Origin: Candidatus Aenigmatarchaeota archaeon
Lineage (GTDB): Archaea > Aenigmatarchaeota > Aenigmatarchaeia > QMZP01 > QMZT01
Length of the DNA stretch: 64,000 nucleotides
Direction of reading: 5' to 3'
NCBI GenBank assembly: GCA_026397315.1
Contig: JAPLVC010000006.1
Span: 117,108 to 181,107, forward strand
The translations under genes and the position numbers were made by a program. This document shows, one piece after another, positions 6,164-39,997 of the stretch (within the stretch, counting starts at the first letter, position 1; each line of letters begins with the position of its first letter). Below the pieces are notes generated by a model that was given only the letters and a program-made list of their open reading frames with translations, ran no database searches and was not told the origin of the DNA.

Positions 6164-6196
6164 TAAGCTCTTTTCAGGAAAGAGCTTAAGCAGAAA
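6164..6196 (+). repeat. Hairpin element, intergenic copy (family also found in tRNA introns)
   Basis: TAAGCTCTTTTCAGGAAAGAGCTTAAGCAGAAA matches 15674-15704 except for a 2-nt loop insertion. Further small hairpins follow to about 6260. Confidence 0.85.
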
Positions 6197-6297
6197 GGAG
6201 CATCGCTCCACTGCGTTTCGCTCGCTTCCTGGTGTCCAAAATCCGTCTTAAAGGCGGTGTTGGCAAAATGGTTTAAGGAAGCCGATATATAAACCTT

Positions 6298-6534
6298 GTG
6301 GTTACCTTGGCGTTCAAGAAAGACGAGATTCATGTGAAGGAGCTGAGCAGGAAGACCAAGGTCATCGTCGCGTTCCTGTGTTTTGCAGCTATCCTGCTGC
6401 TTGTTTACCTGACCGTATATGCATATAACAACGTGAGCCCGTTCATTGCCCTGCTGCTGATGCTGGTCCTGCTCATAGTGGCGGTGGTGGCGATTTTCGC
6501 GCTCGACGTCGCTCTTTACAGGGAAATATCGTAA
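6298..6534 (+). CDS. Small two-TM membrane protein
   Basis: Two hydrophobic helices; ATATATAAA shortly upstream; start uncertain. Confidence 0.7.
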   Translation: MVTLAFKKDEIHVKELSRKTKVIVAFLCFAAILLLVYLTVYAYNNVSPFIALLLMLVLLIVAVVAIFALDVALYREIS

Positions 6535-6566
6535 TCAGGAAAAAGAAGATTCAGACCTGTTTCTGC

Positions 6567-7298
6567 TTACGGTTTATCGAGTGTTTCGAGAAACTCTTTT
6601 TCAAGGAAGTGCAGCTTGCCCGGGATTATTATGACTGCAGGCGCGGGCAGTTCTATGTCCGCCAGGTCGCTGGTTTTGCCGTAAATGACGCGCTCGTTCT
6701 CGGAGCCGAGCGCCGAGCATATGACCGCCTCTTTCAGCAGGCTGCTCTTCTTCGCACTCTCGATGGAGAACAGGATGTCGAAAGCCTGCTTTGTTCCCAT
6801 GTTTACGTCCAGCAGCATGAGCGTGTGCAGTCCCTGTTTCTGGTTCTCGGCAAGAGCGTCGTAGAAGCCTTCGCTAGCGTAACCCTTCGCAGGCGTTATT
6901 ACGGTCGCCGTCCTGCCGAACTTGTACAGCTGAAGGCCGCTCTTCGCGATGGCAGTGTAAATCGATGAAGCATGCACGACTTCGTAATCAACTTTCTTCT
7001 GTTTGCATTCCATCACCAGATGGACGTGCGTCGTCGCAGTTAGCGGGTCGCCAGGCGCTAGCAACGCGACGTGCTTCGTCTTCGCTTCCTCGATGAGCTT
7101 GGCTGAATCGTCTTCGACGTCGGAGCGCTCGACGACCTGAATTTTTTTACCTACAAGCTTCTCCAGCTTCGCCAGGTCGCCTCCCCACGCGGCCGTGTAG
7201 AGCTCGCAGTAGAGCTTGTCCGCACGCTTGCAGGCTTCGATGCCGCGAATCGAAATGTCACGCTCGTCCCATATGCCAAGGCCTATCAATGAAAGCAT
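6567..7298 (-). CDS. dph5: Diphthine synthase
   Basis: MLSLIGLGI-DERDIS-RG, ELYT, GDPLTATTH, GLQLYKFGRT, GLHTLMLLD, LHFLEKE. Confidence 0.96.
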   Translation of the reverse strand: MLSLIGLGIWDERDISIRGIEACKRADKLYCELYTAAWGGDLAKLEKLVGKKIQVVERSDVEDDSAKLIEEAKTKHVALLAPGDPLTATTHVHLVMECKQKKVDYEVVHASSIYTAIAKSGLQLYKFGRTATVITPAKGYASEGFYDALAENQKQGLHTLMLLDVNMGTKQAFDILFSIESAKKSSLLKEAVICSALGSENERVIYGKTSDLADIELPAPAVIIIPGKLHFLEKEFLETLDKP

Positions 7299-7354
7299 GA
7301 ATAGAATTTCATTCGCGATTTTAATAGTTTTAAACCTTTGAGTGAAATCTGAAT

Positions 7355-8641
7355 ATGGCAGCTCACAACGATCTTTTCATGGCGACTCTTGACAACGACG
7401 CGGGTTTCGACCTGGGCGATTTCGCCAGGAAAAGCGGCAAGAAAGCTTATTTCACGTGGCACGTCGATGAAGGCGGGGGCAGCATAAACTCCTCACCTGT
7501 CATAAAGGGCAGTCACGTTTACATCGCCTCTCTCGACGGCTACATTTACAAACTTGAAAAAGCAGACGGAAAACTGGTGTGGAAATTCAAGGCTGGCGGC
7601 ATGTTCAGTGACGCTCATCCTGTCATAAAGGACGGCATAATCTATCTCGGCTGCTATGATCACAACATGTATGCTATCGACGAAACGACGGGCGAGGAGC
7701 TCTGGAGGTTCAGGACCGGCGGCAAGATAGACGGTTCGACCGTTCTACTGATTGACGACATGGCGATATTCAGTTCAAGGGATTATTACGTTTATTCCAT
7801 ACACCGGAAAACCGGCAAGATGATATGGGCTTTCAGGACCGGCGGCTGGTCGTATTCCTGCCCAACCGAACACGAAGGTAAAATATTAGTCAGCTCCTCG
7901 GACGGCAACATGTATTGCCTTAGCAAAGAAGGCAGAGAGATCTGGAGATTCAAAACGGGCGGCAATATTTTCATGCAGGACAGGCTATGCATACGCGATG
8001 GCGTAGCTTATTTCGGTTCGGATGATTTCAACGTATACGGCGTGCGGCTTTCGGATGGCAAAGAAGCCTGGCGCTTCAGGTGCGGCAGCTACGTGAATGT
8101 CATGCCGACAATACATGACGGCATTATTTACATATCATCTGACGACGAGAATTTCTATGCAGTCGACCTGGCCACGGCAAGAACAATCTGGAAGTTCAGG
8201 ATGGGCGAGCGTGCGGCCGGCAGCATGCCGGTCATACTTGGAAACAACGTGATATTCGGCTCCGCCGACCACAACGTGTATTGTCTTGATGCAAAGACCG
8301 GCAAAGAGGTCTGGCGCTTCAAAACTTACGGCCACATTTTCGGTGAGACTGTGATTGAGAACGGCAGAATATACGTGCCTTCATACGACTGCCATCTTTA
8401 TTGCATCACTATCGATGGCGAACTGATATGGAAGTTCCGCACGTCCACCATTAGGCAGAGCACATACAAATACGAAGAGGAAACCGTCATCGAATTCAAC
8501 GCGCCCAAATTCGAGGAAACTGCAGACGAGAAAGAAGATAGGTATGCAGTCAGTGCTGAAAACGTCGTGAGCCACGATTACGCCTTCAAGAGCGAGTACT
8601 CTTTCAAATCAGAATATCAGACCAAGAGCGAGTACGCCTGA
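7355..8641 (+). CDS. PQQ/BamB-like beta-propeller repeat protein with acidic KSEY-repeat tail
   Basis: About eight repeats of Y-GS-D--vYal---tGke-W-F-tgg. Confidence 0.9.
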   Translation: MAAHNDLFMATLDNDAGFDLGDFARKSGKKAYFTWHVDEGGGSINSSPVIKGSHVYIASLDGYIYKLEKADGKLVWKFKAGGMFSDAHPVIKDGIIYLGCYDHNMYAIDETTGEELWRFRTGGKIDGSTVLLIDDMAIFSSRDYYVYSIHRKTGKMIWAFRTGGWSYSCPTEHEGKILVSSSDGNMYCLSKEGREIWRFKTGGNIFMQDRLCIRDGVAYFGSDDFNVYGVRLSDGKEAWRFRCGSYVNVMPTIHDGIIYISSDDENFYAVDLATARTIWKFRMGERAAGSMPVILGNNVIFGSADHNVYCLDAKTGKEVWRFKTYGHIFGETVIENGRIYVPSYDCHLYCITIDGELIWKFRTSTIRQSTYKYEEETVIEFNAPKFEETADEKEDRYAVSAENVVSHDYAFKSEYSFKSEYQTKSEYA

Positions 8642-9844
8642 TTACTTGCTGAACAGTATCTCTATCACGTCGCCGTCCTTCACTTCGTGCTCCGCGCCCA
8701 ACTTGCGTTTCGTCTCGAAATCGACGCCGCCGATGAATTTGGCCGCCATCTCGCTGTGAACCTTAGCTGCAAAATCCTTGAGCGTCGTTCCTCTCGGCAC
8801 GAGCAGCGCGTCGGGAAGAACGGTCCCCTTTTTATCCGTCATTTTATTCACATTCGCTACCGGATAGACGACGATGTGGTCGAGCAGCTCGAACACCGCT
8901 TTGTCCACGCATTCCTGCACGCCGGTCGAGCCGAACTTTTCCAGTATGTTGTGCTTCACGAATTCCAGCGCCTTCTTCTGCCTGTCGCTGAGCTTGTCCG
9001 GTTCGAGTATTTCAAAACTATTGCATCCTGGAAGATATTTTATCAGGTCGTGCTTGTCCGCCTCCCTGAGGGCGAGTTCGCTTTCGGCTGAGCACGGTAT
9101 TATAGTATAATTAGGAAACTCCTCTTTCAGGCACTCTATGTTTTTGTCCGCGCCCGGCATGTCTATCTTGTTCGCCGCGATTATCATGCGCTTCGAAAGC
9201 TTGCGCAGCTCGAAGGCGAATTTGCAGAGGTCATCGTCGCTCCACCGTGTGGGCGAAGTTTCATACAAATTGAATTTTTCAAGCACCTTCAGTATCTGAT
9301 CCTCTGTTATCTTCAGGCCTGAAAACTGCTGGAAAAGCGAGTCGAGTATGTTTTTTTTGTTCATCTCCACGTCTTTCGAGAATTTCGACCAGTTCTTTTT
9401 CAGCATGCCGTAAAACCAGTAGCCTATTTCCTCCTCGAGAAAGCGGACGTCGTTAGCGGGGTCGTAGCTGCCGCAGGCGACGGATTCGCCGTTCTCGTTC
9501 GTCGAGCCTGACGCGTCTATGACGTGGATGAACGCGTCCGCCTGTCTCAGGTCATCGAGAAATTTCAGGCCGAGGCCTTTGCCGGCGTGCGCGCCCGGGA
9601 CGAGGCCAGCGACATCAAGAAGCTCGGTAGGCACGAAGCGCATGCCCTGTTTGCAATAGCCGACCTTGGGCTTGCACTGCGTCGCTATTTTCACGTCCGG
9701 ACATTTGACCTTGACGTATCCCATGGCGTGGTTAGGTTCAATCGTCGTGAAAACACGGTTCGATATTTCGACGTCCACGAGCGTGAGCGCCTTTAGAAGA
9801 GTTGATTTGCCAACGTTCGTTTTTCCCACAATCCCAATTAGCAT
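8642..9844 (-). CDS. ychF: Obg-family ATPase/GTPase YchF (archaeal type)
   Basis: [47 protein letters not shown], C-terminal TGS domain. Confidence 0.95.
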   Translation of the reverse strand: [400 protein letters not shown]

Positions 9845-9951
9845 GAAATCACTAAGAATAATCGGATTCGGGTTTAAAATGGTTTACATAGATGTCAAAT
9901 GATAATCAGGAAATTATTGAGCATTTTAAATACTAAAAATATCAGATAAGT

Positions 9952-10347
9952 ATGAAAAAACACGATGAAAATAAAGAAATGGAAAGTCATTTAAAACAAT
10001 ATAACATTTATGCTGGAAATTTGAGAAATTGGTTTGTTGGTTATGGTATCGGAGCATTGGTTCTGTTCATAACACAAAAAGAATTTTTTTCTACGCTTAG
10101 CCTTTCTGAAAAAAATTCAATATTAATATCCATAGCGATTGGAATTTTTTTGCAAATATTCATTTCAATGTGGAATAAATATACACAATGGTTAAGTTAT
10201 CAACAAATACATCGTTCTCTTGTAAATAGCAAATTGCACAAAATAGCAGGACGAATCACGAGAGTGTGGCAGATTGATTTTATTTGCGATGCACTCACAT
10301 TAATCGCGTTTGCCTATGCTCTAATCGTTGCTCTTAAAATTATTTGA
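9952..10347 (+). CDS. AT-rich hypothetical membrane protein (about 3 TM)
   Basis: Hydrophobic segments; clearly AT-richer than flanks; convergent overlap with the metG stop. Confidence 0.7.
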   Translation: MKKHDENKEMESHLKQYNIYAGNLRNWFVGYGIGALVLFITQKEFFSTLSLSEKNSILISIAIGIFLQIFISMWNKYTQWLSYQQIHRSLVNSKLHKIAGRITRVWQIDFICDALTLIAFAYALIVALKII

Positions 10348-12421
10348 CTTTGCCGTCTATCTTCTTGTCGACTTGGATTTCACCATCGCTCGTCTTGAGT
10401 GGCTTGTCCTTGTAATACGCTTTTCCATCCTTTGCTACGAGTTCGAATTTCGCGAAGTCCTTGATGGTCAGCTCTTTCGCCGGCCGCTTTTCGACGTCGT
10501 CGATGACGACGTGCGCGCCCGGCTTGTCTTTCGAAAAGAGAACTCCGACGTCTTTCCCGTCGTCCGCCGCCAGCAGCATGCCCTCGGATTCGATGCCTTT
10601 CAGATTCGCTTTCTTCAGGTTGCACACGACGACGATGTGCTTGCCTTTCAGGTCGCTTTTCGAATACTTGTCTTTCAGGCCCGCGACAAGCGTCCGCTTT
10701 TCGTCGCCCAGGTCGATAGTCAGAATGTAGAGCTTCTCCGCCTGCGGATGGTCTTCGACTTTCTCGACTTTCGCCACTCGCAGGTCGAGCGTCGCGAACG
10801 CGTCTGAGAATTCGACTCTCTCAATTTTCCGGAAAAGGATTTCCGGCTTGTTTATCTTGTGGTTTTCCAGCGTCTCCCTGAAGTCGTCCCATTTCACGTC
10901 CTTGAGATTGAGAGACTTGAATATTTTCTCGGAGAACACGGGAAGTATGGGATTAAGCGTGATGGCGAGCTTCTTGACCAGGTTCGCGGCTATCGCTAGC
11001 ACCTCAGCCATGCGTGCCGGGTCCTCTTTCGCGAGTTTCCACGGGGCGTTCTCCTGAAAATAGCGGTTGCCCACGTTGCTGATTTCGAGCGCGTTCTTCA
11101 CAGCCTCGCGCAGGGCGAATCCATAATAGTTCTTCTCGGCCTTCCTGACCAGGTCATCCGCTCGCTCAAGCGCCATGAGGTCCGCGTTTCTCGCGCCAAG
11201 CTTGCCTATCTTGCCTTCCGCATATTTATCGATGAACGTCAGTGTTCGATAGCAGAAATTCGCAATGTTCCCTATGAGTTCGTTGTTAGCCCTGTTCTTG
11301 AAATCCTCGAAGCTCAGGTCAATGTCGCCAGTCGTGTGCGTGAGATTCGATGCATAATGGTAACGCAGGAACTCCGGATCGAGAATCTGCAGGTATTCGC
11401 GCGCGGTTATGAACGTTCCTCTCGACTTCGACATTTTCTCCCCGTTCACTGTAAGGAAGCCGTGCACCACGACGTTATCAGGCGTCTTGAATCCTGAGCC
11501 CATCAGAACTGCGGGCCAGAATATGAGATGGAAGTAGGCGATGTCCTTGCCGATGAAATGGATTATCTGCGAATTCTTCGATTTCCAGTACGCTCCCTCT
11601 GCAGAGCACTTGTGGTCCTTGCAGTAATTCTCCGTAGATGCGATATACCCTATCGGCGCGTCCAGCCAGACGTAGAAATATTTGTCCTCTTCGCCCGGGA
11701 TTTTGAAGCCGAAGTAAGGCGAGTCGCGCGAGACGCACCAGTCCTCAAGGCCCTTGTCAATCCATGAGAGCACGTAATTCTTTATGTCGCTCTGCAGGTT
11801 TTTGTTGTCGTTGAGCCACGCGCGCAGCCGCTCGGAGAAGTCGCCAAGCCTGAAAAAATATTGCTCCGAATCTTTCATCGCCGGCTCGCTCCTGCATATG
11901 CCGCAGAACGGGGATTTAAGATCGATGGGTTTGTAAGTCGAGCCGCACGCTTCGCACACGTCGCCGTACTGGTCCTGCGCGCCGCATTTGGGGCACGTGC
12001 CTTTCACGAACCTGTCGGGCAGGAAGCGCTTGCATTTCTCGCAGTAGAGCTGCCTGAGCGTTTTCTTGTAGATGTGGCCGTTGTCCTTCAGCGCCTTGAA
12101 AATCGTGCGCGTGAAATTCTCGTTCTCCTTCGAGTGGGTAGTGTAATAGCTGTCAAAATGTATGAGAAAATCTGAAAAGTCTTTCACGTGCTGGTCATAC
12201 CAAATTTTGATGAATTCCTCGGGAGTCACGCCTGCCTTGAGAGCGGAAATCTCGATTGGCGTGCCGTGCGTGTCGTCGGCGCAGCAGTATATCGCGTCGT
12301 GGCCGCTGAACTTCAGGAAGCGCGTGTAGATGTCCGTCTCTATGTATTCCACCAGATGGCCCAGATGGACGGGACCGTTCGCGTATATCAGGGCCGCGGT
12401 TATCAGCGTCTTGTCAGCCAT
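10340..12421 (-). CDS. metG: Methionine--tRNA ligase with C-terminal tRNA-binding OB domain
   Basis: YANGPVHLGH, two Zn knuckles, YVWLDAPIGY, KMSKS, C-terminal Trbp/EMAPII-like domain (GIESEGMLL). Confidence 0.98.
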   Translation of the reverse strand: MADKTLITAALIYANGPVHLGHLVEYIETDIYTRFLKFSGHDAIYCCADDTHGTPIEISALKAGVTPEEFIKIWYDQHVKDFSDFLIHFDSYYTTHSKENENFTRTIFKALKDNGHIYKKTLRQLYCEKCKRFLPDRFVKGTCPKCGAQDQYGDVCEACGSTYKPIDLKSPFCGICRSEPAMKDSEQYFFRLGDFSERLRAWLNDNKNLQSDIKNYVLSWIDKGLEDWCVSRDSPYFGFKIPGEEDKYFYVWLDAPIGYIASTENYCKDHKCSAEGAYWKSKNSQIIHFIGKDIAYFHLIFWPAVLMGSGFKTPDNVVVHGFLTVNGEKMSKSRGTFITAREYLQILDPEFLRYHYASNLTHTTGDIDLSFEDFKNRANNELIGNIANFCYRTLTFIDKYAEGKIGKLGARNADLMALERADDLVRKAEKNYYGFALREAVKNALEISNVGNRYFQENAPWKLAKEDPARMAEVLAIAANLVKKLAITLNPILPVFSEKIFKSLNLKDVKWDDFRETLENHKINKPEILFRKIERVEFSDAFATLDLRVAKVEKVEDHPQAEKLYILTIDLGDEKRTLVAGLKDKYSKSDLKGKHIVVVCNLKKANLKGIESEGMLLAADDGKDVGVLFSKDKPGAHVVIDDVEKRPAKELTIKDFAKFELVAKDGKAYYKDKPLKTSDGEIQVDKKIDGKVK

Positions 12422-12542
12422 ATCAAATAGTTTTCGTTGTTTACTTAAAAAATGATTTGCCTATGAAATGCGCGCGAAAGCGTTCCGTAAGGATAAATAA
12501 CTAAATAATTATTATTATTCTGCCGGACGCTGGTTTGATCTT

Positions 12543-14102
12543 ATGACAGACGAAATACAGAAAATTGTGAGGGAAGCGGAGAGGGCGAAAGTCTGGCTGA
12601 AGGAAGCGAACCACATGCGCGTCGTATCGCATTACGATGCCGACGGCATAACGTCAGCTTCGATAATGGCCAAGACGCTCGTCCGCATGGGCAAGGACTT
12701 CCATTTGTCGATGGTCAAGCAGCTCAGCAGTCGCGTTCTCGAATCGCTGGCTGGCGAAAAGCGAGAGCTTTATATTTTCCTTGACATGGGTTCCGGTCAG
12801 ATAGAGGGTATAAAGACGGCGCTGGCGAACTCGAAAGTCATAATCTGCGATCATCATCAGCCGGGCGGCATCGCTAACGAAAACGTCGTCCACATAAACT
12901 CGACACTCGCCGGCATAGAGAACAGCATTTCGGGCTCTGGAGTGACGTATCTTTTCTGCAAAACGCTTAACCCTATAAACGAGGACCTCAGCCCGCTTGC
13001 GGTCATAGGCGCGATAGGCGATTCGCAGATAGACGCCATAGGTCTCAACTGGGGCCTGAGCGGGCCGAACAAAATAATTCTCAAAAGCGCGGAGGCGCAA
13101 AACAAGATACGCGTCTCGAAAGGCCTGCGACTCTGGGGGCGATACACGCGCCCGTTACATAAGGCGCTTGCATACTCCATCGATCCTCACATCCCTGGCA
13201 TAAGCGGTTCTGAATCTGCTAGCATCCAGTTTCTCACGGATCTGGGCATCCCGACGAAGAAAGGCGATGACTGGAGGACGATTGCTGATTTGACGACTGA
13301 AGAGCAGAAAACGCTCGCGAGCGGCATGATAAAGGAGCGCGTCCGCGCGAACCAGGAGAATCCCGAGTACATATTCGGCGACGTTTACGACCTGCTCGAC
13401 AAGGAAGGCGACTTCCGTGACGCGAACGAATTTGCCACCATACTCAACGCCTGCGGCAAGATGGGCCAGGCGAGCCTCGGTGTGGCACTGTGCCTCAACG
13501 TCAAGGACGCTTTCGTGAAAGTGAAGGACATATTCGAAAGCTACCGCAGGGAAATAGGCAAAGGCGTGAACTGGGTCGAAACAAACCTTAAAAACCCTGA
13601 CATAGTAAAGGATATGAACGGCGTTTACGTTTTCGCCGGCGACAACGTTTCGGAACACATGATTTCAAACGTCATTTCGATCATAAGCCATTCCGGCCTG
13701 CTGCCCGTCAAGCCGCTGTTCGGCATAGCGAACGCGGAGGACGGGATAAAAATATCGGCCAGGGCGCACGACTCGCTCGTCGAAGGCGGACTCAAGCTCA
13801 ACGAGATAATGAATTCGGTTTCACAAAAGCTCGGCGGCGAAGGGGGCGGCCACATGGGAGCCGCGGCGGCCGTCATACCGCGGGAAAGGCAGGAGGAATT
13901 TATAAATATGACCGAACTAATACTAACATCTATTATTGGTGAAAATAATGGGCATGAAGAACAAGCCAAAACTGAAGGAAGATGCGGAAGTCCAGAAGAA
14001 AGAAGCGACACTGGAGAAGGAAGCCACTCCGGACCAGGTGGAAGAGAAAATACAACTCAAAAAATGGAAAGGAAAGGACTGGTTCAATATATTGGCTCCT
14101 AG
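12543..14102 (+). CDS. RecJ-like DHH phosphoesterase (GAN/aCdc45-like)
   Basis: SHYDADG, DMG, CDHH, LNACG, ISAR, GGGHMGAAA; sits upstream of S3ae as in many archaea. Confidence 0.9.
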   Translation: MTDEIQKIVREAERAKVWLKEANHMRVVSHYDADGITSASIMAKTLVRMGKDFHLSMVKQLSSRVLESLAGEKRELYIFLDMGSGQIEGIKTALANSKVIICDHHQPGGIANENVVHINSTLAGIENSISGSGVTYLFCKTLNPINEDLSPLAVIGAIGDSQIDAIGLNWGLSGPNKIILKSAEAQNKIRVSKGLRLWGRYTRPLHKALAYSIDPHIPGISGSESASIQFLTDLGIPTKKGDDWRTIADLTTEEQKTLASGMIKERVRANQENPEYIFGDVYDLLDKEGDFRDANEFATILNACGKMGQASLGVALCLNVKDAFVKVKDIFESYRREIGKGVNWVETNLKNPDIVKDMNGVYVFAGDNVSEHMISNVISIISHSGLLPVKPLFGIANAEDGIKISARAHDSLVEGGLKLNEIMNSVSQKLGGEGGGHMGAAAAVIPRERQEEFINMTELILTSIIGENNGHEEQAKTEGRCGSPEERSDTGEGSHSGPGGRENTTQKMERKGLVQYIGS

Positions 14103-14772
14103 GGAGTTCGGATCGAAGCTTCTCGGACAATCGCCTGCAACGGACCCCAAGACACTTGTGGGAAGGACGATGGAATTCGGCGCTGCCGAAATCACGGGTG
14201 ACAATTCCAAGTATTACATGAAACTCAACGTCAGGATCATCAACGTCGAGGGCAGGACATGCCTCACGTCGTTCAACGGCTTTGAATGCACCCGCGACCA
14301 CCTGCTCAGGATGGTCAGGAAAAGAAATCAGAAAGTCGAGACAGTCATCGACGTTTCCACGAAGGACGGCTGGATTCTCAGGATGAAGCCGTGGACGATA
14401 CTCAACGGCAAGCCGCCCACGAAGGTCGAAACAAAGGTGCGCCATTTCGTCATGAATTTCTTCAACGACGTCGCCTCCAAGAGCAACATGAATGACATGC
14501 TGAGGAAGATACTCACGACCGAGATGCAGATGATGCTCAAGAAATCGGGCAGCAAGATTTATCCGATTCGTTTTTCTGAAGTGGCCAGGATAAAGGTGCT
14601 CAAGTCGCCTGAGTTCGTGCCTGAGACGGTAGCGCCAGCCGAGGAAGTTAAGGCAGAAACAGCAGAAGCCAAGGAAAAACCGGCCAAGAAGGAAAAGAAA
14701 AAGGCGCCCAAAAAAGAGAAAACCGAGAAGGCCGAAGAAAAGGAAAGCAAGAAAAAGCCGGAAGCCGAATAA
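13948..14772 (+). CDS. rps3ae: 30S ribosomal protein S3Ae (eS1) with charged tails
   Basis: KWKGKDWFNILAP-EFG, GRTME, RMVRK, KIYPIRFSEV; GGTGA precedes ATG 13948. Confidence 0.93.
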   Translation: MGMKNKPKLKEDAEVQKKEATLEKEATPDQVEEKIQLKKWKGKDWFNILAPREFGSKLLGQSPATDPKTLVGRTMEFGAAEITGDNSKYYMKLNVRIINVEGRTCLTSFNGFECTRDHLLRMVRKRNQKVETVIDVSTKDGWILRMKPWTILNGKPPTKVETKVRHFVMNFFNDVASKSNMNDMLRKILTTEMQMMLKKSGSKIYPIRFSEVARIKVLKSPEFVPETVAPAEEVKAETAEAKEKPAKKEKKKAPKKEKTEKAEEKESKKKPEAE

Positions 14773-14777
14773 ATAAC

Positions 14778-15569: not shown

Positions 15570-15626
15570 GCCGCCCACGCGTTTAACAACAAATAAAAAG
15601 AATCACTAGTATTATTATCACATCAA

Positions 15627-15761
15627 GCCTCGGTGGCTCAGTGGTAATTTCGAAGGAAGCAGATCGCTTGGTATAAGCTCTTTAGGAAAGAGCTTAAGCA
15701 GAAAACGAATATTCTGCTGACAAAAAGCGAAAGGTCGCGAGTTCAATTCTCGCCCGGGGCT
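15627..15761 (+). tRNA. tRNA-Thr(GGT) with 52-nt intron at 37/38 (15674-15725) and an irregular D-arm
   Basis: Acceptor GCCTCGG/CCGGGGC, anticodon arm TCGC-TT-GGT-A|A-GCGA, T-arm GCGAG-TTCAATT-CTCGC. About 10 extra nt in the D region are unresolved. Confidence 0.8.
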
Positions 15762-15850
15762 TTCCATTTTTTAATTTTCAAGTTGTCAGTTCCCGGAAAA
15801 CCAGTCACCAATATAAGAGAGCCGCTCCAAATAATAATTGAGGTGTTTTC

Positions 15851-15943: not shown

Positions 15944-16023
15944 TGGTGGGTTTCTAAATAATTAGAAAATAACTACTTTTTAAGAGTAAAAATGTATTTA
16001 AATACTCCAGAGAAGACTTAGGC

Positions 16024-31192: not shown

Positions 31193-31201
31193 TGGTGTGA
31201 A

Positions 31202-32008: not shown

Positions 32009-32038
32009 TATTTATTCTGTCCGCGCAAATTAGATTAT

Positions 32039-33499
32039 ATGAAAGGGTTTTTGATAGCGTCAATAACTTTTCTGCTGATAGTTTCTTTTGCAGCTCATTT
32101 TGCGAATGCGCTTGAGAGCGGCACCGTTTTCTCCGTGGGTCCGGACACGGGATACAAGTGCGTTTACGTGAACCTGCCCCAGGACCTCGGCATCGGCGCG
32201 GTTAACCAGAAATCAGAAACAATCATAGAGTCTAACAAAGTCAACAGCCCGTGGGTCGACACGACATACAGCAAGGTCGTCATAGAGCCCGGTGTGCAGA
32301 ACAAGAATCCGGTATGCTTCTATTATTCAGGCAGGGAGGAAGGCGAATTTTCCTTTTACAGCATAAAGCTGTCGTCACTCGGTCTGGGGGTCAAGAATAC
32401 GATTTCTGGCGGACTCTGCATCTCAAATTATGCGGACGTTGACACGGGTGTGGATACTGAAAATACAACCGATGTTTGCAAGCTGCTCAATGACAATGCC
32501 GACATAATAGACCTGAGCTTCGCAGAGGACACGACACAGGCGAAACCGGGCGAAGTAGTGAGCAAAACTCTTTACATCACATCTTATGCGAACCTACGCA
32601 TAAGGCTGTCCATAGAATCCGACATGCAGAACGATTTTGGAGAGCCTGTCGTGACAACATCGCCTTCTAAACCCATGGTGAGCAGGACGTTCAAAATAAA
32701 GGCGCCTGACCATGAGGGTGATTTCGGGTTCACGGTAAAGGCCCAGGTAGAGGGATGCAACATAAACGCCTGCACCAAGCAGAAGCAGGGCATAATATCC
32801 GTAAGCCAGACCGCAAAAGAGGGCTTTTCTGTTTCTGTCATACCCAGAAACATAAACCTGAAAAGTCCAGAAGAAATGCTTTTCAGGATCGTCATCACCA
32901 ACAAAGAGGATACCAAAGATTTCACCATAGAGGCAACCTCGGACCTCTCGCTAGCGATAGAGCCGGAAACCAAGACGGTGAGCATCGAGAAGGATGAAGA
33001 AAAGACAACGCTTTTCAAAGTCACGCCGGGCAGCGAAAAGCTTTACAGACTTGATTTCAAGATAAGCACGCCGGACGAGGAAAGCACAACTAGCGCATAC
33101 GTAACCATAGGCGAACTGCTCAGCGACGCTCTCAGATACGCGGAAGAAGTGGAGAAGGACGCTTCGCCAAGCCTTTTGGAAGAAATAACAAAGGCCAAGG
33201 AAAATTATGAGGTAAAATACAACCAGACGTCTTATGGTGACGACCTGAAAGATTACGAGGAATTCCAGAAAACGCTCGATGACGCGCAAATGGAGATTGA
33301 TGGCGGCGAGAATAACACGACGGTCACGCCGCCGAAACCTGACAATGGCGGCGGCTTCAACATCATGTTCATTGCCATACCCCTGGTCATCGTCGCAGCC
33401 GTCGTGCTGATTTTCATAGCCTTCAAGAAAGCGAAATCCGGTTCCAGCGATGCGGGTGGCTATCAGGCCGGCTACGGTCCCAGGGACGAACGCTATTGA
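32039..33499 (+). CDS. Secreted multi-Ig-like protein with C-terminal membrane anchor
   Basis: Signal peptide, beta-rich domains, helical linker, TM. Confidence 0.8.
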   Translation: MKGFLIASITFLLIVSFAAHFANALESGTVFSVGPDTGYKCVYVNLPQDLGIGAVNQKSETIIESNKVNSPWVDTTYSKVVIEPGVQNKNPVCFYYSGREEGEFSFYSIKLSSLGLGVKNTISGGLCISNYADVDTGVDTENTTDVCKLLNDNADIIDLSFAEDTTQAKPGEVVSKTLYITSYANLRIRLSIESDMQNDFGEPVVTTSPSKPMVSRTFKIKAPDHEGDFGFTVKAQVEGCNINACTKQKQGIISVSQTAKEGFSVSVIPRNINLKSPEEMLFRIVITNKEDTKDFTIEATSDLSLAIEPETKTVSIEKDEEKTTLFKVTPGSEKLYRLDFKISTPDEESTTSAYVTIGELLSDALRYAEEVEKDASPSLLEEITKAKENYEVKYNQTSYGDDLKDYEEFQKTLDDAQMEIDGGENNTTVTPPKPDNGGGFNIMFIAIPLVIVAAVVLIFIAFKKAKSGSSDAGGYQAGYGPRDERY

Positions 33500-33586
33500 A
33501 GCCGGTCCGCGCGTGCCGAAAGCATAAATATTAATTCTGATGCGAAATAATTCAGATACCAAATCATATTCAGGGAGGTCATTGGC

Positions 33587-33883
33587 ATGAAAGAGGTATT
33601 TTTCATACACATGGAGAATTACTCGAAAGCGAAGAACGTGGTCTTCACGGACGACGTGGTCGCTAGGCAAACGGTCAACTTCAGGGAAGCGCGAGCGTTA
33701 GGCATGCAAAAGGACGGCTATTACCTGGAGATAGACGGCCCGCAGGAAGCGATACACAGGGCAAAAGAGCTTCTCGCAGAGATAGCGAAGGTAGTCGAAC
33801 ACAAGGAGAAGGAAGAAGTTCTCCACAAGATAAAGGCAGAGGAAGACAAGGCGGCTGAGGGTTTTGGCAGCCTTTTCGGCTGA
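33587..33883 (+). CDS. Small hypothetical protein
   Basis: GGAGG upstream; ends AEEDKAAEGFGSLFG. Confidence 0.8.
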   Translation: MKEVFFIHMENYSKAKNVVFTDDVVARQTVNFREARALGMQKDGYYLEIDGPQEAIHRAKELLAEIAKVVEHKEKEEVLHKIKAEEDKAAEGFGSLFG

Positions 33884-33971
33884 GCAGGAAGCATTTAAAT
33901 TTAAGCTCGGCAAAGAAATAATACACCTATCGTTGACCGACGCAGATTTATCTGCGTCTTTCGATGGTCAT

Positions 33972-34044
33972 GCGTCGGTAGTCTAGCCTGGTAGGACACA
34001 GGCTTGCCAAGCCTGTAACCCGGGTTCAAATCCCGGCCGACGCA
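33972..34044 (+). tRNA. tRNA-Gly(GCC), intronless
   Basis: GCGTCGG/CCGACGC acceptor, CAGGC-TT-GCC-AA-GCCTG, CCGGG-TTCAAAT-CCCGG. Confidence 0.96.
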
Positions 34045-34131
34045 TATTGAAAAACCGGCAACTAACGCCCGTAAAAGCAGAAAACGGTGACCCGAAAAAC
34101 CTATTTATTATCTAAATGGGATATTATAAAC

Positions 34132-34683
34132 ATGAAGTTTCTCAAAATGCGCTCCAAAGAAGTAAAGGAGTTGCAGCCCGAAGCCCAGGAAAACGCCGCT
34201 AGCGACGAGAACATCCAGGCTCCGGTTCAAGCGGGAGATGACAAATACGGCCCGCCATCAAAGCTGCCTGAGATAAAGAGGGCGCTTCCAAGGCCTGCAC
34301 CGAGAGTCGCTTCTTCGTCCGGTTCGCCGCCGCTTTTCATAAAAGTCGACAAATACAGGGAAATAGTCAAAGGCATACGCGAACTCAGGTCTTACATTCT
34401 CAACCTCAAGGACACGCTGGACGTCCTCAGCGACATGCAGCGCGAAGTCGGGAACGGCGTCCAGATAGCGCACAAATCACTCGACGAGCTCAATTCGCTG
34501 GTTTCCGATCTTGACTCTTTCTTCATGAAGCCGCAGACCGTTAGCGGCAGCAGGATACAGGAATACGACGCTGACGACATAGAGGACGAAGCGGACACGC
34601 ACGCGAACGAAATACGCAGCTCCATGAAAGACGTCTACGGACAGCTTGAAAAGTTGCGTGCCCAGCTCAGGTCCATACAGTAA
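34132..34683 (+). CDS. Coiled-coil hypothetical protein
   Basis: Pro-rich N-terminus, PPLFIKVDKY motif, heptad-rich helices. Confidence 0.8.
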   Translation: MKFLKMRSKEVKELQPEAQENAASDENIQAPVQAGDDKYGPPSKLPEIKRALPRPAPRVASSSGSPPLFIKVDKYREIVKGIRELRSYILNLKDTLDVLSDMQREVGNGVQIAHKSLDELNSLVSDLDSFFMKPQTVSGSRIQEYDADDIEDEADTHANEIRSSMKDVYGQLEKLRAQLRSIQ

Positions 34684-34717
34684 TTTAAATAAATAGCTCC
34701 ATTTCTAAATTCTATAT

Positions 34718-34836
34718 GCGGGGGTAGCCAAGCGGTTAAAGGCGATAGAACGGTCTTGAACTCTGATTCAAGATGATGTCGACGCTCAAGACCTATTCAC
34801 TTAGTGTGTTCCAGGGTTCGAATCCCTGCCCCCGCA
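34718..34836 (+). tRNA. tRNA-Leu(CAA) with 35-nt non-canonical intron at 30/31 (34749-34783)
   Basis: ATAG|G-CT-CAA-GA-CCTAT; long variable arm; BHB helix CGAT/GTCG. Confidence 0.92.
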
Positions 34837-34873
34837 TTAACTGCTAAATAAGTATTAATGAGGGTTCATTTTT

Positions 34874-35455
34874 ATGGCAAAGGTAAAGGTTCTTATTGAA
34901 GGGTATGCCCATGAAGGCAATGGATGTTATGAAGCAACTAGCACTACTGTTTTGATTGAAGATTCTGGAAAGAAAATAATTGTTGATCCTGGCTGCAATG
35001 AAGAATTGCTGTTGCAAGCGCTGAAAGGAGAAGGACTAACACCAAAAGATATTGATTTGATTTTTTTGACACATTATCATATTGACCATGTTCTGAACAT
35101 AAGACTGTTTCCTGGGAAAGATATCTTGGATGGAAACATAATTTATCGTGGCGACAAAGAATTCTCTTTTAAAGAAAAAATACCTGGAACAAATATTGAA
35201 ATTATCGAAACCCCCGGTCACGCACATGAGCATACAACACCCTTAGTCAAAACGGAAAAAGGGATTATAGCAATAGCAGAGGACTTATGGTGGTGGGAAG
35301 ATGAAAAACAAAAAACCGACAAAAAATCGTTGTTATCTTTAAAAGATCCTTTTGTTAAGGATGAAGCGGCTTTGTTAAAAAGCAGAAAAATAATCATAGA
35401 AAAAGCGGACTTCATTATTCCAGGCCACGGAAAAATGTTTAAAGTTGAAAAATAG
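34874..35455 (+). CDS. MBL-fold metallo-hydrolase (MBLAC1-like)
   Basis: VDPG, THYHIDH, TPGH, IIPGHG; AT-rich. Confidence 0.9.
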   Translation: MAKVKVLIEGYAHEGNGCYEATSTTVLIEDSGKKIIVDPGCNEELLLQALKGEGLTPKDIDLIFLTHYHIDHVLNIRLFPGKDILDGNIIYRGDKEFSFKEKIPGTNIEIIETPGHAHEHTTPLVKTEKGIIAIAEDLWWWEDEKQKTDKKSLLSLKDPFVKDEAALLKSRKIIIEKADFIIPGHGKMFKVEK

Positions 35456-35479
35456 CTGGCTAGCGGGTTCTAATGGCGA

Positions 35480-35503
35480 TTCGAATCCCTATCCCCGCAT
35501 TAA
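35480..35503 (+). repeat. Duplicate of the tRNA-Leu 3' end (att-like)
   Basis: TTCGAATCCCTATCCCCGCATTAA matches 34817-34840 at 22/24 positions. Confidence 0.85.
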
Positions 35504-35610
35504 AGCCTTTTGGAAAAAGGCTTTATCGAAAAACGACGATGAGGTTTGGCGAAAACGACGGGCGGATTTGCGAAAGCCGGTTTTCCGCGGCCGCTTTTTC
35601 CAAAAGGGCC
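35502..35610 (+). repeat. Hairpin element, intergenic copy with a degenerate inverted second copy (MITE-like)
   Basis: 32-nt exact match to the tRNA-Ser intron start; GCTTTTTCCAAAAGGGC at about 35593 is a near reverse complement of the first hairpin. Confidence 0.75.
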
Positions 35611-35648
35611 CTTTTCGCGTTTTTAAAGCGGTTTTTCAACTTTAAAAC

Positions 35649-35900
35649 ATGAGCGACAAGAAGCTCGTGGGAAAGGTAAGGCATTACTTCAGCAACATAA
35701 ACGTCGCCGTCATCGACTTGACAGCGAATCTCAAGGTCGGCGACGAAATATCGATAGAAGGCTCTTCTACGAACGTTACGCAGAAAGTCGATTCGATGCA
35801 GATCGAGCACAAAAGCGTCGAGGAAGCGAAGAAGGGGCAGTCCATCGGTCTGAAGGTCGCGGACAGGGTGAGGGAAGGCGACGTCGTATTCAAGATGTAA
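35649..35900 (+). CDS. Small translation-factor-like beta-barrel protein
   Basis: VGKVRHYF--INVA, LKVGDEI, SMQIEH, VREGDVV. Confidence 0.85.
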   Translation: MSDKKLVGKVRHYFSNINVAVIDLTANLKVGDEISIEGSSTNVTQKVDSMQIEHKSVEEAKKGQSIGLKVADRVREGDVVFKM

Positions 35901-35951
35901 CGAAGCGGCTGCAGCAAACCTTTTAAACATGAGCACGGTTTAATAACTAAT

Positions 35952-38156
35952 ATGCCTTACACCCTGATAATATCCGAAAAACCCAGCGCAGCACAGAGGA
36001 TAGCGCAGGCCCTAGCCGAAGGCAAGGTCGAAAAAGTCGGCAAGGCTACTTATTATTTCAAGTTCAAGCGCGGCGGCAAGGATATGATAGTCGTCCCGGC
36101 CGTCGGGCATTTGTTCGTTCTAGACGAGAAGAACAAGAAGGCGAAGTGGACGTATCCCGTATTCGACGTCGAATGGAGGCCGACTTTCGCAGACAAGAAC
36201 AGCCAGTGGGCAGAGAAGTATTATGAAGCGATTGCGAAGCTTGCGAAAGGCGCCAGCGAATACATCTCGGCATGCGACTACGACATCGAGGGCTCGACCA
36301 TCGCTTTCAACATCATTCGCTTCATATGCGGCGCCAAAGACGGGAGGCGCATGAAATTCTCGACTCTTACCGACGAGGACATAGTGGAAGCCTTCAAGAA
36401 CGCGTCACCGCATCTCGACTTCCCGCAGATAGAGGCCGGCCTGACCAGACACACGCTGGACTTCATGTGGGGCATTAACATGTCACGAGCGTTAACGCTG
36501 GCCTTGGAGAAAGCGAATGGTTACTGGACGCTCTCAATCGGAAGGGTGCAGGGACCGACGCTCAAGATTCTGGAGGACAGGGAGCGCGAAATCGAAAGCT
36601 TCGTGTCCGAGCTTTTCTGGACACTTGAAATGCACGGTTCGGTCAAAGGCAACAAGATAATCGCTTTTCATGCGACGGACAGGTTCTGGGAAAAGGAGCA
36701 GGCCGCCGACGTTTTCAGCAAGTGCAGCGGCAAAAAAGCCATGGTTGAATCCCTGGAGAAGAAGATGGTAAAGCAGATGCCGCCCACGCCTTTCGATTTG
36801 ACGACGCTGCAGCGCGAAGCGTTCAACTGCTTCGGCTACTCGCCCAAAATGACTCTCGACGTCGCTCAAACGCTTTACGAGCAGGCGCTTATATCATATC
36901 CTCGCACGTCGAGCCAGAAGCTGCCGCAAAAGCTCGGCCTCAAGGCCATTATAGAGAAGCTTGCGGGCCAGAAAGATTATGCGGTCATCTGCAGCAAGCT
37001 GGCCAAGAAACCGGAGCTAGCGCCGCGCGAAGGCGAGAAGGAAGACATGGCGCACCCGTCGATATTCCCGACAGGCCAGATGCCGGGTAAGCTCAACGGC
37101 TACCAGCACAACATTTATGATTTGGTTGTTCGACGCTTCCTGTCGACGTTCGGCAACCCCGCGATAAGGGAACGCATAACGGTCGTGATAGACTCGAACG
37201 GGGAGAAGTTCAAGTCTTTCGGCGTCAGGACCATCAAGCCCGAATGGATGGAGTTCTACGGCAGATTCGCGAAGTTCAAGGAGCAGCTGCTGCCTGCTAT
37301 GGAGAAAGACGACGTCGTCGACAAGCCGGATATAAAGATGAACGAGAAGGAGACGACTCCGCCAGATCGCTTTTCACAGGCTTCGATACTCAAGAACATG
37401 GAAGATCGCAACTTGGGGACGAAGGCGACGCGCGCCCAGATACTCCAGACGCTTTACGACAGGGATTACATAAAGGACAAGTCGATACGCGTCACGCCTC
37501 TCGGATCGGCCGTGGTCGAGTCGCTCGAGAAGCACTGTCCTGAAATAATTTCCGAAGATCTGACCAAGACTCTCGACGCGGAGATAGAGCTCATACAGAA
37601 AGGCAAGAAGAAGCGCGAGGATATAATCGCGCACGCGCAGAAGGACCTTGAAGCCGTCCTCGGCAAGTTCAAGGAGCACGAGTTGCACATAGGCAACGAG
37701 CTGAAGGAGGGCGTGAAAGAGTTTCAGGAAATAGCCCATTACGTGGGCGTGTGCCCGACCTGCGGAGGCGAGCTGCGCATAATACGCTCCCACATGACCA
37801 AGAAATATTTTGTCGGCTGCTCAGGCTACCCGAAGTGCAGGCAGAGCTACCCGCTGCCGCAGAAAGGCCAAGTCGTAGCGAGCGACGAAAAATGCGAGAA
37901 GTGCGGCCTAAACATCGTGCTTATCAGGCAATTCAAACGCAGACCGTGGAAGCTGTGCGTCAAGGACGGCTTTGTTGGCATGAAATTCGACAAGAAAAAG
38001 AAAGGCGCCGAAACCAAGGAGTCCGCCAAGGAAACAGCAAAAACAAAGGAAGCGCAAAAAGTTGCTGAAAGCAAAACCGTTGCGAAAAAAGAAGCCGTGC
38101 CGAGGGCCGCCATCCAGCTACAGAAGAAGCCGCAGACTGCAAAAACCAAGGTTTAG
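35952..38156 (+). CDS. topA: DNA topoisomerase IA
   Basis: ISEKPSAA, ACDYDIEG, SIGRVQGPTL, active-site ISYPRT, LGTKATR, C-terminal Zn ribbons. Confidence 0.97.
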   Translation: MPYTLIISEKPSAAQRIAQALAEGKVEKVGKATYYFKFKRGGKDMIVVPAVGHLFVLDEKNKKAKWTYPVFDVEWRPTFADKNSQWAEKYYEAIAKLAKGASEYISACDYDIEGSTIAFNIIRFICGAKDGRRMKFSTLTDEDIVEAFKNASPHLDFPQIEAGLTRHTLDFMWGINMSRALTLALEKANGYWTLSIGRVQGPTLKILEDREREIESFVSELFWTLEMHGSVKGNKIIAFHATDRFWEKEQAADVFSKCSGKKAMVESLEKKMVKQMPPTPFDLTTLQREAFNCFGYSPKMTLDVAQTLYEQALISYPRTSSQKLPQKLGLKAIIEKLAGQKDYAVICSKLAKKPELAPREGEKEDMAHPSIFPTGQMPGKLNGYQHNIYDLVVRRFLSTFGNPAIRERITVVIDSNGEKFKSFGVRTIKPEWMEFYGRFAKFKEQLLPAMEKDDVVDKPDIKMNEKETTPPDRFSQASILKNMEDRNLGTKATRAQILQTLYDRDYIKDKSIRVTPLGSAVVESLEKHCPEIISEDLTKTLDAEIELIQKGKKKREDIIAHAQKDLEAVLGKFKEHELHIGNELKEGVKEFQEIAHYVGVCPTCGGELRIIRSHMTKKYFVGCSGYPKCRQSYPLPQKGQVVASDEKCEKCGLNIVLIRQFKRRPWKLCVKDGFVGMKFDKKKKGAETKESAKETAKTKEAQKVAESKTVAKKEAVPRAAIQLQKKPQTAKTKV

Positions 38157-38163
38157 TTCTGAT

Positions 38164-39057
38164 TCAGACGTATTTCGCAGTGTCGAGTATGTTGTTTCTG
38201 TTGTCAAACACCACGAAATACTTGTCCATGTGCTTGAACATCGCCACAGCGTCTTCGTGGCCGTTCACGCCGCTGCCGCAGTTTATTATGTACTGAGAGT
38301 GCTGGTCGCGCCCGTTTCTCTTGACGTCTATTGCCCTGACATAAGGCAGGCTTTCTATTTTGTTTGAAACCAGACACTCCCCATCCCTGCTGATCTGCTC
38401 GAAATAAGTGTCGTGGGTGTGGCCGAGTACAAGGAACCTGACATTGCTTCTGTTGGACAGCGACTGTTCCACGTTCTTGTAGAACTTGTCTTTGTGCCTG
38501 TATTCATTTCCGTTTTTCTTTTCCGTCAGGTGTTCAAACCACACATCTATGTCCTTGTTGAAATATCTTTCAAGAAGGCCCAAAAACCTAAGTGCGGGCT
38601 CCTCTATTTTGGGGTTGCCTATTATCAGATTTGACGCAGAGTAAAAATGGCCGTGCTCTGCCTCCAGATTGTTTCCACCATACATCGGGACAAACAGTCT
38701 GCTTCTGGGGTTGAATCTTTTCCACACCCTTGCCAGTTTAACGTCGTGGTTACCGCGTACGTATCTGGCTTTTCCGCTTGCCAGCATCTCCTCAACCTTT
38801 GCTATAGTCTGGGGATGGGCGTCCTTTATGAATTTGTATAGGTCGCATGAATCCAGCTTAAATATGTCAAATATGGAGTTTCTTTTTACATCGAATGCCT
38901 GGTTTAAATCTACTATATCACCCACCAGAAACAGATCGGCCTCCTTGTCCTTGTTTATTTTTTCGAGAAATTCGGGCAACTGCTTTGGGTTTGTAGTGTC
39001 CTCTGCTTTGCTCCCGTCAACCAGATGCCAGTCGCTGGTGAAGATGCGCTTCTTCAT
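38164..39057 (-). CDS. Calcineurin-like metallophosphoesterase
   Basis: SDWH, GDIVD, GNHD, EHGH, GHTH. Confidence 0.9.
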   Translation of the reverse strand: MKKRIFTSDWHLVDGSKAEDTTNPKQLPEFLEKINKDKEADLFLVGDIVDLNQAFDVKRNSIFDIFKLDSCDLYKFIKDAHPQTIAKVEEMLASGKARYVRGNHDVKLARVWKRFNPRSRLFVPMYGGNNLEAEHGHFYSASNLIIGNPKIEEPALRFLGLLERYFNKDIDVWFEHLTEKKNGNEYRHKDKFYKNVEQSLSNRSNVRFLVLGHTHDTYFEQISRDGECLVSNKIESLPYVRAIDVKRNGRDQHSQYIINCGSGVNGHEDAVAMFKHMDKYFVVFDNRNNILDTAKYV

Positions 39058-39131
39058 GCTTTAATGTTAAAAACAAGCTTTAAATTCACTACTTTTTGGT
39101 TATTTATAAACTATAAATAATCTTAAAATTT

Positions 39132-39818
39132 TTAGAAAATCCTGAAGCCGGCGGGCTTGACACCATCTTGCACTATATCGAATTTCACGGTTTTACCTTC
39201 AGGTATTGAGCGATGCTTGATTATCGTCGCCTTGCGTTCGCTCATCCTGCCCGTGCGCTCGAGAAAGACCATCGACTTAGACCAGTATTTTATGGCATCA
39301 CCGCCTATTATCTGTTCCTCGTTGCTTTCCCATTTCCTGAAAGAGTGCGCCGTTATAAGGACGGGGATTTTCATTTTCCTGGCAAGATTCGAAAGGAATG
39401 AAAGCTGCACAGACAGCTCCTTGTTGGCTTCCTTGGCCTCGCATTCATGGTCGGCGCATTTTAGGCGATATAGCGCGACCGCGGAATCGAGAATCACCAT
39501 GCCGATGTCCCTGAACTGGTTTTCCAGGTTTTTTATTATCACACCCTGTTCCTCAAAGGTCTTGGGCTCCATGACTATTATCTTGTCGAGATCGCTCTCG
39601 TTACCGCTTATCTGCAGTATGCGTTCTGGCGAGAGTCCGCCTTCCGTGTCTATGTAAACCACTTTCCCTCCCTTCCTCACGCATTCCAGCGCGGCCAGTA
39701 TGCAGATGTTCGTTTTGCCCGTGCCCGGGTTGCCGTAAAAGTTGGTCAGGGCGCCCTTTTCTATGCCGCCCGTGAGCGAATGCAGGGGCTCAGGCAGAAG
39801 CAATCGTTCTTCATTCAT
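39132..39818 (-). CDS. radB: DNA repair protein RadB
   Basis: GNPGTGKTN, YIDTEGGLS-ER, LDS, GG-AIKYWSK, KHRS motif. Confidence 0.93.
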   Translation of the reverse strand: MNEERLLLPEPLHSLTGGIEKGALTNFYGNPGTGKTNICILAALECVRKGGKVVYIDTEGGLSPERILQISGNESDLDKIIVMEPKTFEEQGVIIKNLENQFRDIGMVILDSAVALYRLKCADHECEAKEANKELSVQLSFLSNLARKMKIPVLITAHSFRKWESNEEQIIGGDAIKYWSKSMVFLERTGRMSERKATIIKHRSIPEGKTVKFDIVQDGVKPAGFRIF

Positions 39819-39847
39819 GCTAAACACTTAATCCTGATAATTAAATA

Positions 39848-39997
39848 CGCCGGGACTGGGATTCGAACCCAGGACCCCGTAAGGAGACTAGCTGTCTGGG
39901 AAAATCTCAAAACGCAAACACGGAGTTTCGTTTTTTCGATAAAGCCTTTTTCCAAAAGGCTTTCCAGGCTAGCGCGTTACCGTTCCGCCATCCCGGC
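39848..39997 (-). tRNA. tRNA-Ser(GGA) with 68-nt intron at 37/38 (39961-39894)
   Basis: GCCGGGA/TCCCGGC acceptor, CTAGC-CT-GGA-A|A-GCTAG, long variable arm, BHB helix CTGG/CCAG. Confidence 0.94.

Follow-up and report, generated by a model that had tools for sequence, protein, structure and literature searches.

A dispersed hairpin element of Aenigmatarchaeota at the start of tRNA and rRNA introns and at gene ends

Four copies of a hairpin element in a 64-kb stretch

The window analysed here comprises 64,000 nucleotides (nt) of contig JAPLVC010000006.1 of Candidatus Aenigmatarchaeota archaeon (GCA_026397315.1; positions 117,108-181,107 of the forward strand), in which an earlier note had described a short hairpin element that begins transfer RNA (tRNA) introns and also lies outside them. 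The genome to which the window belongs, termed G000, amounts to 1.05 Mb in 7 contigs with about 49% G+C and is 91% complete; the host is of the symbiont type with a streamlined genome of 1 Mb. For close comparison we used G000 together with four draft genomes of the same genus (G001-G004; five genomes in total), where flanking sequences are about 88-94% identical to G000 in G003 and about 70-80% identical in G001, G002 and G004. Wider samples consisted of 61 genomes of the order and 151 genomes sampled from the phylum. The four copies of the note were recovered at 6164-6196 (+), 15674-15704 (+), 35502-35533 (+) and 39963-39932 (-), and an 18-nt degenerate pattern spanning the right arm and tail of the hairpin has exactly four matches in the window against 0 expected from 100 shuffles.

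The copy at 6164 is intergenic and has two hairpins (6164-6229, + strand): hairpin 1 and its A-rich tail occupy 6164-6198 and are followed by a hairpin of the type GGAG..CTTCC, the whole lying between a conserved TATA-like box and a small open reading frame (ORF). Its hairpin 1 has two loop bases more than the copy in tRNA-Thr(GGU), whose gene spans 15627-15761 and whose 37/38 intron (15674-15725) starts with hairpin 1 and tail at 15674-15707 (+). The tRNA-Thr(GGU) of G000 lacks 29 nt that are present in G002 and G003, namely some of a D-loop intron together with the D-stem's 3' strand and the first anticodon-stem base, and no second tRNA-Thr(GGU) copy was detected in this assembly. The gene of G000 is probably a pseudogene, or else a population or assembly variant. 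An AGAGC inside the hairpin of the Thr intron was considered as a substitute D-stem strand and rejected, since it stands in the wrong order for linear splicing. On the minus strand, the tRNA-Ser(GGA) gene (39997-39848) has a 37/38 intron of 68 nt (39961-39894), and A36-A37, hairpin 1 and tail at the intron start lie at 39932-39963 (-). Both tRNA copies begin at the 37/38 junction as the note had it, and the Ser copy is identical in 32 of 32 positions to the copy at 35502.

The note had counted the copies at 6164 and 35502 as free in intergenic DNA, which holds for the former and not for the latter. The element at 35502-35535 (+) stands 2-3 nt behind a decayed 3' fragment of a tRNA-Leu(CAA) (about 35461-35499), while an intact tRNA-Leu(CAA) lies upstream at 34717-34837 (+); in G003 a copy of the 35502 type immediately follows the intact tRNA-Leu(CAA). 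The 35502 element is the original trailer copy of this tRNA-Leu(CAA), moved off by an insertion of about 620 base pairs (bp) at about 34838-35460. This insertion lies directly behind the tRNA, is absent in G003 and is edged by the decayed duplicate of the tRNA 3' end. It contains an ORF of 193 amino acids (34874-35455) that corresponds to the first part only of a metallo-beta-lactamase fold (Pfam E 6e-15), and no integrase was found in it. As a separate observation, the variable arm of tRNA-Leu(CAA) and its orthologues (L065, L066 and L068) is interrupted by an intron of about 40 nt in G002, G003 and G004 but not in G000 and G001, a polymorphism unrelated to the hairpin family.

Structure of the family and the genes that host it

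The consensus of hairpin 1 is a stem of 9-10 bp with the arms AAGCC-TTTT and AAAA-GGCTT around a loop of 3-5 nt, followed by the A-rich tail AAGCGAAAA. Hairpin and tail together measure about 35 bases, and the ends of the element are conserved (TAAG on the 5' side; on the 3' side CTTAAGC and an A-run). The search for the family combined nhmmer with a covariance model (R1; derived from 19 copies), a type of model the note had proposed, and yields 19 copies in G000 at 34-54 bits, the next matches being at 25 bits or less and mostly reverse-strand echoes of the palindrome. Further copies exist across the order and the phylum: the family is present in 42 of the 61 genomes of the order at 0-28 copies per genome, with G024 the richest (28), and copies were detected in 40 of the 151 genomes of the phylum sample. 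Rfam gave no family match for the element in the window or at six loci. In 91 aligned copies from many genomes 97.5% of the stem cells pair in an alignment fitted to the model, and two-sided changes occur at 5 of 9 stem pairs (for example GCC/GGC, GCT/AGC, ACC/GGT), which none of 500 shuffles equals. The stem changes that the note had read as compensatory are truly so, and the hairpin is backed by covariation in this model-fitted alignment.

A second hairpin, closed by GGAG..CTTCC, follows hairpin 1 in 45 of 102 copies collected from 30 genomes for a census of contexts. Its closing stem covaries (GGAGCC/GGCTTCC, GGAGGC/GCCTTCC, GGAGCT/AGCTTCC) and its top varies freely in length and sequence, giving a two-hairpin form of 50-117 nt. 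A GGAGCC stretch after the Lys trailer copy had been considered as part of a permuted or split tRNA; this reading was rejected as the stretch is the conserved hairpin 2. In many of the larger introns the 3' end bears a further right arm, distal to the first, which is able to pair with the left arm, and at some loci there are extra right-arm-plus-tail units in tandem. Three such units follow tRNA-Pro in G000 (C7:111470-111562), units 2 and 3 being conserved in G003 (L098), and about 26 nt beyond the last one, a TTTATC variant, comes the ATG of a prepilin-peptidase-like gene, of which this unit may be the promoter.

Copies in G000 fall into three groups. Eight are in introns, where anticodon loops (Ser, Thr, Ala, Gln) account for four of them and D-loops and T-loops for two each, which places a similar element in introns of at least 8 tRNAs of this genome with many more in its relatives. 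Another four follow the 3' end of a tRNA at a distance of 1-3 nt (those of Ile, Lys and Pro, and the Leu fragment), to which a degenerate fifth trailer copy behind tRNA-Cys may be added, and seven are intergenic. Since tRNA genes make up well under 1% of G000, the enrichment of copies at tRNAs is extreme. The census of 102 copies gives the same picture, with 50 in tRNA or ribosomal RNA (rRNA) introns, 9 at tRNA 3' ends, 41 intergenic and 2 unclear, many intron copies being recognised as such from the 22 nt that precede them; the enrichment at tRNA introns and 3' ends that the note had suggested looking for is present in both. The 50 intron copies lie in D-, anticodon- or T-loops of tRNAs or in 16S or 23S rRNA, always in sense and with the hairpin at the intron start, and no antisense copy inside a tRNA was found by two crude detectors. 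Two of the hosts are rRNA genes, as Rfam confirmed: a 16S gene with a copy close to its 3' end and a 23S gene with an internal copy. All 9 tRNA 3'-end copies start 1-3 nt beyond the tRNA. Taken together, the element is a real, widespread and dynamic repeat family out of which many tRNA and rRNA introns are built.

Most tRNA genes here are overlooked or shortened by Rfam and by ARAGORN without intron mode because the genes are interrupted. ARAGORN also assigns wrong isotypes (Trp, Pyl, Stop) to G000 tRNAs with non-canonical introns, at C6:145383-145508, C7:47308-47428, C3:51703-51828 and C5:47352-47485; by eye the first of these is Glu(CUC) and the second Gln(CUG). A second and unrelated family of hairpins, GACGCAG-loop-CTGCGTC with its variants, stands in front of at least 5 tRNA genes in G000 and ends about 12-15 nt before their 5' ends (hairpins at C7:151025-151078, C5:47020-47075, C3:187434-187490, C6:6205-6261 and C1:55775-55830). 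In another genome of the sample (G013, L109:1606-1787) the 5S rRNA match extends over 182 nt against a model of 120 positions, which suggests a 5S gene with an insertion or intron of about 60 nt.

Splice motif, endonuclease and turnover among relatives

The position of the hairpin at intron starts was examined with a strict motif search consisting of a 5-bp exon helix, a 4-bp exon-intron helix and two 3-nt bulges, that is 9 pairs. In G000, 9 of 9 pairs form at the true 3' splice sites in 5 of the 8 intron copies, among them tRNA-Ser(GGA) with both helices and both 3-nt bulges. Minimum-energy folds give the same layout: the 4-bp helix and hairpin 1 are separated by 3-4 unpaired bases that contain the 5' splice site, and the 3' splice site falls in a clean 3-nt bulge next to the exon helix. 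In tRNA-Arg(CCU) the T-loop intron consists of little beyond the element, whose tail pairs through its CGAA with TTCG in the T-loop. The intron copies, whose hairpin comes directly after the 5' splice site, are therefore predicted to form a bulge-helix-bulge or bulge-helix-loop substrate, in which the hairpin is a portable intron-side helix.

Such substrates would suit the splicing endonuclease of the host. EndA is encoded in G000 as a single protein of 395 amino acids (C1:34559-35746; L070:1189-2376, - strand) with a full-length match to PDB 4fz2/9w2k (E 3e-104), the epsilon2 endonuclease of ARMAN-2 that cuts both bulge-helix-bulge and bulge-helix-loop substrates (PMC12397907; PMC3239211). 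In 2018 the epsilon2 type was still described as known only from Micrarchaeum/ARMAN and Mancarchaeum (PMC5829648); EndA has more than 1000 homologues, and many of the named ones are from Candidatus Aenigmarchaeota/Aenigmatarchaeota. G000 also encodes RtcB (E 7e-157) and RNase Z. It is likely that the element-bearing introns are spliced by this machinery. At 11 non-intron copies of G000 a partner completing the strict motif gave a single 9/9 match (Ile trailer), which lies inside the downstream ORF, and chance matches at 8/9 pairs are common (null 0.1-1.0), so these matches provide no evidence that non-intron copies are spliced. Formation of tRNA 3' ends by the endonuclease was also considered and rejected, because with a spacing of 2-3 unpaired nt the tRNA would not end on the discriminator and because the genome has RNase Z.

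Comparison of the five genomes revealed both occupied and empty sites. The Thr 37/38 intron is shared by G000 and G002 (2 differences in about 52 nt), occurs as a variant in G004 and is absent in G003 and G001, where the genes join precisely. The site orthologous to 6164 is empty in G004, holds only the hairpin in G001 and two copies in G002, and in G003 is as in G000. The note's reading depended on further copies and on presence/absence variation between relatives, and both exist, including empty orthologous sites of the kind it had proposed to look for. The Ser(GGA) intron has a hairpin variant with compensatory changes in 4 of the 5 genomes and is degenerate in G004. The Leu(CAA) trailer copy occurs in G000 and G003 and is not at the site in G001, G002 and G004. 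In tRNA-Val(UAC) an anticodon-loop intron of 43 nt, in essence the element with 9 extra nt, is found in G003 only, and two intergenic two-hairpin copies (C1:23090 and C4:88572) are found in G000 only, one of them inside the loop of an older hairpin. By parsimony these last three would be lineage-specific gains.

Loss and replacement occur as well. A trailer copy behind Leu(AAG) in G003 is missing in G000 through a deletion between TTTC repeats, of which the left arm survives as a plain T-run. The Pro trailer copy of G000 is identical in 35 of 35 positions to the Thr-intron copy 21 kb away, and the same trailer site in G002 and G003 holds other element variants; one copy has here been overwritten by another, and the Leu trailer and Ser intron pair looks alike.

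Spread of the element, alternative readings and known systems

The observations above are best explained as a whole by a palindromic cassette with a defined structure, dispersed in Aenigmatarchaeota, that spreads and is kept as spliceable introns, a reading to which we give a probability of roughly 60%. New copies would arise at unrelated sites via a process at the DNA level, and existing ones are removed by small deletions or overwritten by other copies. Inside a tRNA or rRNA gene a copy would survive only in sense orientation and only where the flanking bases are able to pair: the hairpin would lie 0-1 nt after 3 unpaired bases that hold the 5' splice site, and the 3' end of the intron would pair with the 4 exon bases preceding the 5' splice site, thereby placing the 3' splice site in a 3-nt bulge beside the exon helix. 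The resulting bulge-helix-bulge or bulge-helix-loop motif would be cut by the epsilon2 endonuclease with its broad specificity and the exons joined by RtcB. Other copies would persist in short transcribed spacers such as tRNA trailers, 3' ends of protein genes and 5' leaders. That copies insert is suggested by the comparison of genomes, and we can only infer in which direction they spread (from spacer to intron or the reverse) and by what mechanism they do so. The proposal of the note, a small mobile or REP-like element that seeds introns, stands in substance on the dispersed family, its enrichment at tRNAs and its turnover. The linkage to HUH/Y1 transposases (IS200/IS605, RAYT) that it envisaged is not supported, none being found in the five genomes of the genus nor in G024.

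Several results weigh against this reading. The domain Y1_Tnp was not found in G000-G004, nor in G024, G009 and G013 (6-28 copies); it occurs in 9 of the 61 genomes of the order, and its occurrence does not visibly follow copy number. In G000 neither TnpB nor a reverse transcriptase (RVT_1) was found, the sole match to a TnpB domain being below the cut-off (17 bits). At the compared sites there is no clear or consistent target-site duplication, 4-nt direct repeats flanking two intron sites only (AAGC at Thr, AACG at Val), and these might just as well favour precise loss. Within 3 mismatches no donor was found in the five genomes for the new Val intron. Three of the 8 intron copies of G000 (the two in D-loops and that of the damaged Thr gene) do not form the strict motif. 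The gains are called by unrooted parsimony over five draft genomes, and repeated loss is a possible alternative because precise intron loss is evidently common. Finally, many intergenic copies stand exactly at gene ends and are retained despite the streamlining of the genome, a hint that they may have a function themselves.

A variant of the spread may also be imagined at the RNA level, where an excised intron would be re-inserted into any transcript with a helix-bulge context by a reversed endonuclease/RtcB reaction and then copied into DNA by an unrecognised activity. It would account for the sense-only copies in stable RNAs and the mostly sense copies in spacers, as well as for starts at the ends of structured or coding units and for the lack of a transposase and of target duplications. 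We regard this route as rather improbable.

The placement of spacer copies bears on the alternative that survives best, in which the hairpin is primarily a gene-end signal, either a bidirectional (palindromic) oligo-U terminator or a 3'-end stabiliser, and its presence in introns is secondary. Intergenic copies lie at the 3' ends of protein genes or in 5' leaders and are often flush with the stop codon: in 12 of 41 the first bases are overlapped by the stop codon of a long ORF on the same strand, in 6 the ATG of a gene on the opposite strand is 2 nt away, and one copy occupies all 34 nt that separate two convergent genes, a placement kept in G003. Nine copies stand 1-3 nt after tRNAs, a place where other G000 tRNAs have plain T-runs, and 11 of the 12 non-intron copies of G000 (7 intergenic and 5 trailer) read in the sense of the adjoining gene. 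Yet the T-runs are as long in introns as elsewhere (mean 4.58 against about 4.5, p 0.51), although termination within tRNA or rRNA genes would be harmful. There are also antisense copies (C4:88572), copies in 5' leaders (6164, C1:116424) and copies in decay, and orthologous spacers of relatives do without the element. On balance we consider a primary role as gene-end signal unlikely.

The two-hairpin layout raises the alternative of a small RNA gene that acts in trans and is expressed from introns, from dicistrons linked to tRNAs or from its own promoter, like C/D-box RNAs. Both stems of this layout covary in the 45 of 102 copies that have it, the three modes of hosting agree with those of known small guide RNAs, and TATA-like boxes lie about 25-30 nt before some free copies. 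A trans-acting RNA would however fit poorly with an apex of hairpin 2 that is freely variable, with the half of copies that lack hairpin 2 altogether, and with copies that appear and vanish between sister genomes, some of them decaying; C/D or H/ACA boxes were not seen and Rfam has no matching family. This makes the small RNA gene quite improbable.

Still more doubtful is the possibility that the copies are scars of integrase-mediated insertion at attachment (att) sites in tRNAs (anticodon loop, T-loop and 3' end), following the Caldiarchaeum model. The positions of the copies agree with the classical sublocations of integrases in tRNA genes, and the insertion with its duplicated tRNA-Leu 3' end adjoins the 35502 copy. 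The model itself is published (PMC3293823). That insertion is nevertheless younger than the element, since G003 has the element and no insertion, and it encodes the metallo-beta-lactamase-fold fragment only, with no integrase. Copies in D-loops, in rRNA and at the ends of protein genes do not fit att sites, and partial tRNA duplications were not seen beside other copies.

Least probable of all is that the right arm and tail are a B recognition element (BRE)/TATA-like promoter and the introns terminator-promoter cassettes between separately transcribed tRNA halves: the tandem units after tRNA-Pro precede a gene and several downstream genes begin 33-65 nt after a copy, but the 3' exon of the minimal T-loop intron follows directly on the tail and a start site would find no space there, conserved promoters of tRNA genes are here pure A/T boxes elsewhere, one copy lies between convergent genes, and the compensatory stem changes indicate an RNA hairpin. 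The readings as small RNA gene, integrase scar and promoter each account for only part of the copies.

How archaeal tRNA genes gain protein-spliced introns is an unsolved question; a 2026 census of Asgard introns tested several routes of arrival and found none. The palindromic cassette described here is a concrete lead that makes intron gain testable, as it provides a defined and searchable module with candidate donors outside tRNA genes. The availability of both rRNA and tRNA targets, of insertions and losses between genomes about 90% identical and of a well-studied endonuclease type in the host adds to its use. It is also a repeat family that shapes gene ends and RNA genes of a 1-Mb genome. 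Searches of the literature gave no paper on this family, nor on DPANN intron modules common to intergenic repeats and rRNA introns.

Among known systems, Caldiarchaeum subterraneum (PMC3293823) likewise has an intron polymorphism of tRNA-Thr(GGU) within a lineage and tRNA fragments beside insertions, but there the element is of 1.8 kb and bears a recombinase, whereas here the unit is of 35-110 nt and no recombinase was found. Miniature elements of IS200/IS605 differ in having subterminal hairpins at both ends, while the basic unit here is a single hairpin, with no TnpA in G000 and a TnpB match below the cut-off. REP/RAYT sequences and the Rickettsia palindromic elements (PMC3733652, PMC12306157) are similar in form: they too are palindromes of 20-40 nt with compensatory variation and variable copy number, they lie mostly at gene ends and are transcribed as RNA hairpins, and those of Rickettsia are also found inside genes of reduced genomes. 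Unlike REP, the present family has no GTAG or CGTC tag seen at the element ends and no RAYT, amounts to tens of copies only (0-28 per genome) and has half of its copies inside stable-RNA genes, from which they are presumably removed as introns.

The bulge-helix-loop introns of ARMAN-2 (PMC3239211, PMC12397907) share the endonuclease type, the positions in D-, anticodon- and T-loops and the relaxed 5' splice site, and the two papers describe these substrates and no shared repeat that builds them. The transposed bulge-helix-bulge introns of Thermoproteales (Fujishima et al. 2010), which served as positive control in bioRxiv 10.64898/2026.10.13.758758, are the nearest precedent. As far as they are presented in PMC4090602, a similar intron recurs there across isoacceptors and positions, gain is at the DNA level by an unknown mechanism, and the splice motif limits where introns persist. 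Unlike in Thermoproteales, the host here is of the DPANN group with an epsilon2 enzyme and what is shared is a hairpin-plus-tail module and not the whole intron. This module also occurs in rRNA introns, tRNA trailers and intergenic spacers, making candidate donors visible, and its gains and losses can be dated between genomes that are about 90% identical.

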